The notes beneath the pieces are model-generated. The model saw only the letters and a list, made by a program, of their open reading frames with translations. It did no database searches and was not told where the DNA came from. A stretch of DNA of 64,000 bases, taken from positions 1,472,001 to 1,536,000 of the forward strand of contig OZ244170.1 of NCBI GenBank assembly GCA_965216565.1, given 5' to 3'. This DNA comes from Bythopirellula sp. GTDB taxonomy: Bacteria; Planctomycetota; Planctomycetia; Pirellulales; Lacipirellulaceae. Below are positions 2,296-3,978 of the stretch, piece after piece; positions within the stretch are counted from its first letter, which is position 1; the number at the start of each line of letters is the position of its first letter. The translations under genes and the position numbers were made by a program.

Positions 2296-2760
2296 TTAGT
2301 TGCCACCTTCTCCGCCGATATCTTGGGAGAACGCGTCCTGGATAAGCTGACTCTCTTTGTGTAGGTGCGTATCTAGCGACTTCAAAAATGCTGCAAGCTC
2401 GGCACAGAGTTGTTCAAATTCTGCAAGTTTGTCAGGAAGCGTTCTTTCCAACTGGGTAACGATTTGGTGTAGCTTTTCGCGTAGCGTAGCGTGCTCCTTC
2501 TGCAATGCCTCAATCTTACTTGCCAAATGGGGAGCCACTTCTACGGCCATGTCCATATAGCCATCGTGTTCCTCAATCGCGAACATGCGGTCAATTTGCT
2601 GCTGGAACCAACTCGTCAAGAACCGCAGTCCTGAGAGCTTGCGAGTGAACAGCGTTCCTTCAATCGGCCAATCAATCATCGACAATAGTGCTTTACGCGT
2701 GTGTTCTAACGCCTTGTTTTCAATGCGGCACTGCTTCAAAATTCCTTTGTCGTCAACCAT
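2296..2760 (-). CDS. Hemerythrin-like four-helix domain protein
   Basis: Motifs EH..., FAIEEHDGYM, KEHATL, THLHKES; paralog of 23349..23828. Confidence 0.65.
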   Translation of the reverse strand: MVDDKGILKQCRIENKALEHTRKALLSMIDWPIEGTLFTRKLSGLRFLTSWFQQQIDRMFAIEEHDGYMDMAVEVAPHLASKIEALQKEHATLREKLHQIVTQLERTLPDKLAEFEQLCAELAAFLKSLDTHLHKESQLIQDAFSQDIGGEGGN

Positions 2761-2845: not shown

Positions 2846-3298
2846 TCACGCTGCCGGTGGCGTGGCGAGTGGAGCAAGAGCTTTGCGACCGACGATTTCG
2901 CCTCGACATACAATTGCCCCGCAGCAACACATAAACGAACGAAACAACACATCTTCTGTCTGTTCGTAGTCCATTGTCAGCAAACTACCAGCGGCGATAT
3001 TTCGCTCCGCGATAAACAGCCACGAACTGGTATCAAACCAAGAATTAGGATCACAACTATGTAGCACTTTGCCAGCAAAGTAAGGGTCGTCCAAGTGTGT
3101 GTCGGGTCCAATTTGCAACGTGGATTGGGTAATCTCATTAGTAATGACTCCATTCATGCGGAAGAGAATCTCGCCGCGATGAAAGGGGCGTAGAACGCGA
3201 ACGCCTTGTCCACGCTGAGGGTCTACGTCGATCACTTCAAAATCTTCGATTTGCGGTTCCAATGGAACCGGCTTGAGATGCGAAGGGTAAATTCTCAT
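2846..3298 (-). CDS. SET-domain protein with post-SET Cys cluster
   Basis: GQGV...F.RGEIL, LHSCDPN (canonical NHSCxPN), LLTMDY (canonical ELTxDY), post-SET FMCCCGAIVCRG. Confidence 0.85.
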   Translation of the reverse strand: MRIYPSHLKPVPLEPQIEDFEVIDVDPQRGQGVRVLRPFHRGEILFRMNGVITNEITQSTLQIGPDTHLDDPYFAGKVLHSCDPNSWFDTSSWLFIAERNIAAGSLLTMDYEQTEDVLFRSFMCCCGAIVCRGEIVGRKALAPLATPPAA

Positions 3299-3687
3299 TT
3301 CCTATAAATCACCTCCAATTCTATGACTTTGGGTCCGAAGAAAAGCTTCGTCACCCGTTCGACGGTTTCAGTATTAAACGGCTTGCAGCTAAAGACATCC
3401 AAATACATGTCGCGATGCGCGTCGTTTGTATGCAGCATGATGGCACTTGTTTGGATGAGCTGAACGCCAGAGATACCTGTTTCGATGCCTTCGCCAAAAC
3501 GAGCCACAAACGGCAACCCAAAGCTAACCATGTCGATTTCATCCACCATCTTCTGTAAGAAATCAAATAGGACCTCTATCGAAAGCAGTTGATCGTTGCA
3601 GCTACGGGCAGTGACCAGAGCATGTTGCCCATAGTGAGGTTGTCCGTTGTGCTGGATGCGTCGATATTCGGGTAGCGCAGAGGGCAT
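3295..3687 (-). CDS. S-adenosylmethionine decarboxylase family (pyruvoyl-dependent) proenzyme
   Basis: YGQH, GISGVQLIQTSAIMLHT, YLDVFSCKPF; ATG at 3687 after GGAG; ATGA overlap with the SET gene. Confidence 0.8.
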   Translation of the reverse strand: MPSALPEYRRIQHNGQPHYGQHALVTARSCNDQLLSIEVLFDFLQKMVDEIDMVSFGLPFVARFGEGIETGISGVQLIQTSAIMLHTNDAHRDMYLDVFSCKPFNTETVERVTKLFFGPKVIELEVIYRK

Positions 3688-3709
3688 AACATTCTCCAAG
3701 CGAGAAAAA

Positions 3710-3823
3710 CGATTCGAGGAAGAATCGAGAGAGAACCTGAGAGCAGTAACTGCAAGGAAGCAGCCCAGATTGTCAGAGAGAGACCGAACGTTCCGATCAG
3801 CAATCGGAGGCGGTCTTTGTCAG
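3710..3823 (-). promoter_or_regulatory. Tandem structured 5' leader upstream of the AdoMetDC-like gene (candidate cis-regulatory RNA)
   Basis: Two units, each CUGACAA + closing stem + inner hairpin + CUCU; G-U pairs favour the minus (mRNA) strand. Confidence 0.45.
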
Positions 3824-3978
3824 TTCAACTATGATTATATTATGTCGTAACGCAAAGTATTCAAGATGCTTTTTACAGAGATTATCCTTAAGGTAGCTGC
3901 ATGCTATCATGAAATTAGAATGGTTGTAGCAGGACGACACGCTAACCAATAAATTGTCCCTAATTACAAAATTGTTAT

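Follow-up and report, generated by a model that had tools for sequence, protein, structure and literature searches.

The locus

The window analysed here, a stretch of 64,000 nt from contig OZ244170.1 of a Bythopirellula genome, carries on its minus strand two overlapping genes, one for a SpeD-like protein (start at 3687) and one for a SET-domain protein, which are preceded by a structured leader. An earlier note, made from the letters of the window, had described this leader as two like units in tandem ahead of an AdoMetDC-SET operon and as a candidate riboswitch. All stems and letters that it drew are present in the sequence, at 3823-3710 on the minus (mRNA) strand. The parts of the leader and the operon, in the order of the mRNA, are as follows:

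3837..3865, minus strand: promoter-like site, with a -35-like hexamer at 3865-3860, a 17-nt spacer and a -10-like TAATAT at 3842-3837
3781..3816, minus strand: hairpin 1, with a lower stem containing invariant CCG/CGG, an internal loop, a 6-bp upper stem and a variable loop of 5-6 nt
3765..3780, minus strand: pyrimidine-rich linker, variable, carrying the second CUGACAA, not conserved
3749..3764, minus strand: hairpin 2, with a 5-bp covarying stem and a 6-nt loop whose YUCY is complementary to GGAG
3737..3748, minus strand: single-stranded tail after hairpin 2, semi-conserved, with a YGC core
3705..3727, minus strand: weak terminator-like hairpin of 6 bp (-5.2 kcal/mol) with a run of five U after it
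3694..3697, minus strand: Shine-Dalgarno (SD) sequence GGAG
3687-3685, minus strand: start codon ATG of a called protein of 130 amino acids
3295..3687, minus strand: SpeD-like pyruvoyl decarboxylase of a divergent subfamily (PF02675, Pfam E 4.5e-14)
2846..3298, minus strand: BurB-like SET-domain methyltransferase, whose gene overlaps the stop codon of the decarboxylase
2296-2760, minus strand: hemerythrin-like (HHE) gene after the operon, found at this place only in the source genome and its two nearest relatives

The leader RNA is about 100 nt long and well bounded. Its transcription would begin near 3830, upstream of the structure, if the promoter-like boxes at 3837..3865 are used; this site was missing from the output of a standard promoter scan. 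A loose -35/-10 pattern lies upstream of the hairpin in 7 of the 8 homologous leaders of the same type (family A, see below) and in 6 of 6 leaders of another type (family C), and because such boxes precede hairpin 1 in 7/8 family-A leaders, the structure is probably transcribed. Judged by position, it stands between promoter-like boxes and the start of the speD-like gene in all 8 leaders of family A. The same stretch occurs with 0 differences in contigs from 3 of the 4 sequencing runs checked, which do not count as independent since the runs may be the source of the same DNA. One run that may be of RNA gave no coverage, which speaks neither for nor against transcription. In the 5.2-Mb genome the leader is a single-copy sequence (blastn and nhmmer), and not the dispersed repeat that, according to the earlier note, would have refuted its reading.

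The predicted ensemble gives high pairing probabilities to hairpin 1 (0.90-1.0) and to the small third hairpin (0.93-1.0), which precedes five U and scores as terminator-like, a feature absent from the earlier note. For the second of the two units originally drawn, probabilities are 0.49-0.94 in the inner stem and only 0.39-0.63 in the outer stem. The folding energy by itself is unremarkable and shows no preference for the mRNA strand: its z-score is -1.44 on that strand (19 of 200 shuffles are as good) and -2.01 on the opposite one (9 of 200).

Distribution of the operon and of its leaders

Decarboxylase matches were found in 29 of 120 genomes of the family. One of them is distant and has no SET gene; in the other 28, source genome included, a SET gene is adjacent. 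The named records among the matches belong to Lacipirellulaceae and other planctomycetes. An order-wide sample of 401 genomes gave three matches outside the family, all distant, and the phylum-wide search revealed no further close orthologs in 401 sampled genomes. One decarboxylase labelled Sphingomonadales (P0056) is 61% identical to the query and lies near planctomycete sequences, which suggests transfer or misbinning.

The 28 leaders were sorted into family A (8 leaders from three Lacipirellulaceae genera, including the source genome), family B (8, one of which ends at a contig edge), family C (6) and six leaders that fall into no group, one of them containing Ns. The two-hairpin motif is thus present in 8 of 28 orthologous leaders and missing from 20. 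A covariance model built on family A gave 8 strong matches in the 120 family genomes, and these are the training leaders themselves. In the source genome the leader scores 74.3 bits and the second match 22.5 bits. The best match outside the training set (34.7 bits, genome G089) was rejected as a chance match, as it covers hairpin 1 only and lies antisense inside a 302-aa frame. The model found nothing under E 0.39 in 22 loci without the motif and nothing under E 0.07 in 20 loci whose decarboxylases are distant relatives. Five of 401 genomes of the order contain the core pattern, one copy in each and always in the leader of the SpeD-like operon. A tighter pattern had 0 matches in viral sequences. 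With an overly loose pattern in metagenomes, none of the matches listed (at least 120, with full flanks for 80) lies by a decarboxylase or SET gene; such a scan says nothing about the presence of the leader in metagenomes.

In the protein tree, the genomes with family-A leaders occupy two places apart from each other, and leaders of other types lie between or within these; the tree has a weak root branch, and a single origin of family-A leaders is compatible with it. Leaders of families B and C are structured as well and conserved within their own clades, and they differ in sequence. Family B (loci L004, L006-L010, L012 and L013; for example L008:1240-1510) has a conserved leader structure of its own, in which two hairpins precede the SD and, in several genomes, a 12-nt element is doubled; 0 pairs are altered on both sides in 7 aligned leaders. 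Family C (L017, L018, L021-L023 and L035; for example L017:1275-1497) has three conserved hairpins, the last of which is long, leads into a U-rich tail some 35 nt ahead of the start, and could be an attenuator. A family-C hairpin shares with hairpin 1 the CYGCCU start and a 3' bulge, and may be a diverged hairpin 1. A looser descriptor unites hairpin 1 of families A and C, covering 14 of the 28 leaders with 17 matches genome-wide; since it was designed after both families had been viewed, it serves as a lead only.

Conservation of two hairpins at the RNA level

As shown by comparison of the family-A leaders, two different hairpins appear to be kept by selection at the RNA level, and only before the SpeD-like/SET operon. 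They are unlike each other in both sequence and shape. Alignment of orthologous leaders, the check that had been suggested with the original description, gave 94.7% pairing over the 152 cells of the conserved helices (8 sequences), cells that do not count as independent events because there are only 8 sequences, related in three clusters. Compensatory change is seen in 7 of 19 pairs, altered on both sides. The covariation score is 0.423 against 0.255 +/- 0.029 in shuffles, and 0 of 500 shuffles reach it, with the reservation that related sequences can beat such shuffles and that the 8 leaders form three clusters. Slid controls pair at 25-56%. The two helices of hairpin 1 pair in 94.6% and 97.9% of cells, hairpin 2 in 91.7%, with 4 of its 6 pairs changed on both sides. 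The first lower stem, in the register of the earlier note, pairs in 71% of cells.

The direction of the variation can be read from the 10 pairs that are Watson-Crick in the source genome, namely the upper stem of hairpin 1 and the inner four pairs of hairpin 2. On the mRNA strand six of them vary to G·U, whereas variation to A·C is seen in none and to A·A in one, and an imbalance of G·U over A·C of this kind would arise about once in 64 cases if variation were strand-neutral. As G·U variants occur in six pairs and A·C in none, pairing in the transcript is favoured over a DNA palindrome.

Conservation is concentrated in hairpin 1. Across the 7 homologs its identity to the source genome is 0.70-0.88, against 0-0.42 in the flanks, and 20 of the 24 invariant columns of the 8-sequence alignment lie in or beside it. 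The linker at 3765..3780 has identities of 0.14-0.64, the tail at 3737..3748 of 0.55-0.91 with invariant GC. Hairpin 1 contains a 2x5 internal loop, CC opposite AYRUU, in which the unpaired positions CC, A and UU are invariant across saturated distances: at four-fold sites of both genes, identity between the source genome and the 7 others is 0.28-0.36. We regard this invariant internal loop as a candidate binding site.

As a control, the regions upstream of orthologous genes were compared over some 1.3 Mb of sequence from three relatives. In conservation the leader ranks 6th of 78, 3rd of 24 and 6th of 58, with z of 10.9, 21.0 and 5.8 (medians 0.5-0.8), and several of the higher-ranked regions resemble, by eye, missed coding sequence, tRNA or an intron end. 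Two other regions of the source genome in this comparison, upstream of G000:C1 394941 (+) and 3662983 (+), are strongly conserved in a relative and fold into hairpins (z 33 and 14).

From this evidence the leader probably forms a functional RNA structure. The structured leader of the original description stands as a conserved and covarying element at the RNA level; it is not a repeated unit.

The downstream genes and their probable product

Among proteins of solved structure, the best relative of the SET protein is BurB (PDB 9L4T, E 6.9e-33), followed by a histone lysine methyltransferase (E 6e-4). Its match to the family profile has E 2.6e-46, and by sequence it is of BurB type, far above histone SET domains. 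Alignment to 9L4T shows that BurB residues Arg42, Thr73, His93, Tyr124, Val130 and Arg133 are kept, and that His72, Ser88, His138, Arg70, Met132 and Ala44 differ, several of which make contact by main chain; the position of His72 is occupied by Ser in the source genome and by His in 9 of 11 other rows. We infer that the SET gene codes for a methionine S-methyltransferase. BurB is described as converting methionine into S-methylmethionine, which is then decarboxylated to DMSP-amine (PMC12542666), and a 2026 review states that it has been reported only in Burkholderia thailandensis (PMC13360808).

The SpeD-like protein scores 29.5 bits against TIGR03330, the equivalog model of canonical AdoMetDC, below the cut-off of 75.65; such a score is compatible with AdoMetDC activity. 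Ser, His and Cys do not vary at the positions that correspond, by alignment, to the residues of processing and catalysis. S-methylmethionine is SAM in which a methyl replaces the adenosyl group. Since SpeD-fold enzymes are known to switch substrate (PMC10407285) and S-methylmethionine resembles SAM, the SpeD-like gene may be assigned as a putative S-methylmethionine decarboxylase. The operon would then likely yield S-methylmethionine and from it DMSP-amine, rather than spermidine, a reading that follows from the SET gene being a BurB-type homolog.

The source genome (94% complete) contains a single SpeD homolog, and neither a stand-alone spermidine synthase nor a deoxyhypusine synthase homolog was detected in it. 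The sole match to a spermidine-synthase domain is a 990-aa MFS fusion, and the one PLP decarboxylase of the searched family is LysA. A saccharopine-dehydrogenase-like protein adjoins an aldehyde dehydrogenase. The case made in the earlier note for a polyamine or dcSAM as ligand loses force with the BurB homology of the SET gene and with no stand-alone spermidine synthase detected in the genome. The closest phage relative of the decarboxylase (29% identity) is a proven AdoMetDC (PMC9992855), and given this relative and the MFS-fused spermidine-synthase-like protein the operon could also produce dcSAM. Literature searches gave no match for an AdoMetDC-SET operon in the context of bacterial polyamines, and no pyruvoyl S-methylmethionine decarboxylase among the matches listed.

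The two genes travel together beyond the family-A genomes: all 28 close orthologs have SET beside them, as do 5 of the 8 phage loci examined and both loci from a plasmid collection. In marine-type phage contigs (L190:1430-4311, L193:1244-4107, L195:403-3269 and L192:1370-3388) a gene with a ParB N-terminal domain precedes the pair of SpeD-like and BurB-like genes (4 of 4 tested), and a PAPS-reductase/DUF3440 gene comes after the pair in 3 loci; this order suggests that DNA is modified with a sulfonium amine. On a Rhizobium plasmid that also carries phage-like genes, an asparagine-synthase-like gene, a BurB-like gene and a SpeD-like gene stand one after another (L212:2478-4390). In Brevibacillus laterosporus (L211:6-4372) an NRPS with adenylation, carrier and condensation domains ends in a C-terminal BurB-like SET domain, and a SpeD-like gene comes after it, which suggests a peptide capped with DMSP-amine. 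Bleomycin A2 bears a DMSP-amine cap. One decarboxylase relative (P0092) has an N-terminal helix-turn-helix domain, PF12728, possibly an autoregulatory fusion.

Proposed mechanism

We tentatively propose that the leader acts in cis, as an RNA element controlling a two-gene sulfonium operon, a reading which we take as a serious possibility while leaving room for others. The BurB-like SET enzyme would methylate methionine to S-methylmethionine, and the SpeD-like enzyme would decarboxylate it to DMSP-amine. The internal loop of hairpin 1 would bind a partner, either a protein or a metabolite of the pathway (S-methylmethionine, DMSP-amine or SAM). The output would be a shut-off of translation, in which the YUCY loop of hairpin 2 pairs with the GGAG ribosome site across the variable third hairpin, as in pseudoknot-type SAM switches.

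The separate parts of this scheme deserve different confidence. That the leader is a regulatory RNA with a binding partner is quite conceivable, if short of probable, and a protein is about as likely a partner as a metabolite. Pairing of the hairpin 2 loop with the SD in particular is doubtful. The loop reads Y-U-C-Y in 8 of 8 leaders (offset by one in one of them), and within the downstream leader it pairs best with the SD in every case, GGAG itself being present ahead of the start in 8 of 8; the pairing comprises 4-6 bp across 56-76 nt, with a Fisher p of 0.036 that is uncorrected for six segments and derives from related sequences. YUYY also occurs in 18-38% of the other 6-mers of the same leaders, and the SD has competing partners in local pyrimidine tracts. 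Direct binding of a metabolite by the leader is unlikely, and the complete scheme of a riboswitch for S-methylmethionine or DMSP-amine that shuts off translation through a loop-to-SD pseudoknot is improbable. Most validated riboswitch classes are broader than one gene in one family, unlike this leader. Within family A no conserved switching pair was found, the best alternative pairing (p 0.008) owing its score to three related genomes. The GGA strand resembles a CsrA site, a likeness that was set aside since this GGA is paired in the conserved stem.

Other explanations have to be weighed against a regulatory RNA with a partner. The leader might be purely structural and sense nothing, its hairpins protecting the 5' end or fixing the rate of translation or decay, with different sets in use in different clades. 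The structured, clade-conserved leaders of families B and C, which differ in sequence, and the failure to find a conserved switch agree with this, whereas a plain stabiliser would have no need of the invariant unpaired CC, A and UU, and most control upstream regions are without comparable conservation; we consider such a leader possible but somewhat unlikely. Hairpin 1 could also be the trace of a DNA operator, an inverted repeat bound by a transcription factor, with the RNA fold incidental. Its upper stem is in fact a perfect 6-bp inverted repeat in the source genome, strongly conserved in sequence and some 25-55 nt downstream of the -10-like box, but an operator does not account for 6 pairs that deviate to G·U on the mRNA strand, with 0 that deviate to A·C, nor for a second, different palindrome that covaries too. 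The spacing to the -10 box ranges from 20 to 76 nt, blastn and nhmmer revealed no second genomic site, and 15 of the 16 other matches of the looser descriptor fall within reading frames. An operator thus seems improbable. The same grade is deserved by a transcription attenuator, in which the leader would govern the terminator-like hairpin at 3727-3705. This hairpin and its U run stand just ahead of the SD, and a late hairpin followed by a U-rich tail recurs in both of the nearest relatives and among family-C leaders, several of which have one. Against an attenuator, the hairpin is weak and not conserved in sequence; at this position the homologs form another hairpin, mostly without a U run, and in the other two genera none of the five family-A leaders shows more than 4 U among the 8 nt that follow any stable hairpin. 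Neither a conserved terminator nor a conserved antiterminator was found across family-A leaders.

Two further readings are much less probable. The tandem arrangement of the earlier note, two like aptamers of the form CUGACAA-stem-CUCUCU sensing SAM, dcSAM or a polyamine, can be drawn in the source genome, and one relative has ACAA before both hairpins. The shared CUGACAA/CUCUCU linkers are, however, specific to the source genome: GACAA stands twice in its leader and in 0 of 7 homologous leaders. The doubled CUGACAA itself is within chance: when the 114 nt are shuffled, 1377 of 5000 shuffles contain a repeated word of at least 7 letters. The outer stem of the second unit, which would draw on the tail at 3737..3748, pairs in 54% of cells compared with 92-98% for the conserved helices, and a descriptor of the unit has 8 other matches in the genome and is not specific. 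This arrangement is very unlikely. A leader peptide starting from an AUG inside the internal loop is hardly credible: AUG is present at that place in 6 of 8 leaders, but 2 of 8, source genome included, have ACG or AUA, no SD is suitably spaced for it, and both the frame and its length vary among genomes (by eye).

We return to the cis-acting RNA with a partner, which changes what should be looked for. Candidate ligands move from polyamines to methionine-derived sulfonium compounds, and the short RNA comes with a small, testable list of ligands, unlike the list implied by the gene names. If it bound S-methylmethionine, DMSP-amine or DMSP, it would present a new riboswitch class and independent evidence for the product of the operon; titles and abstract openings of the literature matches listed mention no switch for any of these three compounds. 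A sulfonium riboswitch would mean a new ligand class, feedback at the RNA level on sulfonium synthesis in Planctomycetota, and control of an unrecognised bacterial route toward DMSP. If the leader bound a protein, it would point to a hitherto unrecognised regulator of sulfonium synthesis. The narrow distribution holds the expected value of the leader at a moderate level.

Comparison with known systems

An Rfam 15 scan of the window at the gathering threshold gave only two tRNAs. The leader itself had, with E up to 10, three unrelated weak matches and no riboswitch family, two homolog leaders had weak unrelated matches only, and 20 loci had no family match, so that the covariance-model scan proposed with the original description assigns no family to the leader. 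The leader fits neither the SAM-I nor the SAM/SAH model: the SAM-I model RF00162 had no match over the cut-off and none at the leader in 5 genomes, and the SAM/SAH model RF01727, with E up to 10 in 5 genomes (4 with the motif), had 31 weak matches, none of them at the leader. The leader is new relative to Rfam 15; the Rhodopirellula-1 motif (PMC2864571), which is given there without an Rfam number, is outside these scans. Of the features generally expected of a riboswitch, conserved covarying structure (in 8 related sequences) and a place in the 5' leader of a consistent gene are present; as to an expression platform with mutually exclusive pairing, the alternative pairings seen are weak and the terminator is not conserved. 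Two homologous units kept in homologs, the mark of glycine- and glnA-type tandem riboswitches, are not seen.

On the side of the enzymes, BurI is PLP-dependent, whereas the partner of the SET protein in this operon is a pyruvoyl SpeD-fold enzyme, and the operon has no aminotransferase or aldehyde dehydrogenase. The likeness to the BurB/BurI route to DMSP lies in a SET homolog beside a decarboxylase, with most of the named substrate contacts kept (PMC12542666). The SpeD-like protein also recalls SpeDC and SpeDA, neofunctionalised SpeD homologs noted for their anomalous presence without stand-alone SpeE (PMC10407285). Of the diagnostic Gln, Thr, Phe and Tyr of SpeDC, as given in that source, it appears to have Gln, Thr and Tyr and not Phe, its residue positions being deduced.

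Among known RNAs, the SAM/SAH riboswitch RF01727 has a loop that pairs with the Shine-Dalgarno sequence and blocks translation of a downstream SAM-metabolism gene (PMC7367207). By this analogy of working alone, the leader may act like a pseudoknot-type SAM switch. It differs in having no extension of the A13/A14/C15 type, its stem running directly into the 6-nt loop, in an SD that is 56-76 nt off with a hairpin between, and in an extra conserved hairpin upstream. The spermidine riboswitch shares the association with a speD-type gene and offers a model for a polyamine-sensing leader; it is described as a close SAM-I variant that acts via a terminator (PMC10853860), whereas the present leader has no SAM-I match and its terminator is not conserved. 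The leader is therefore outside the SAM-I, spermidine-variant and SAM/SAH switches. A different likeness is offered by SAM-Chlorobi and pan, narrowly distributed structured leaders that were found by comparison and precede the genes of one pathway (PMC2864571). For SAM-Chlorobi, preliminary probing is described as giving no SAM or SAH binding, and for pan, protein binding was proposed (PMC2864571). It is to such narrowly distributed orphan leader motifs, SAM-Chlorobi among them, that the leader of the SpeD-like/SET operon is closest in kind.
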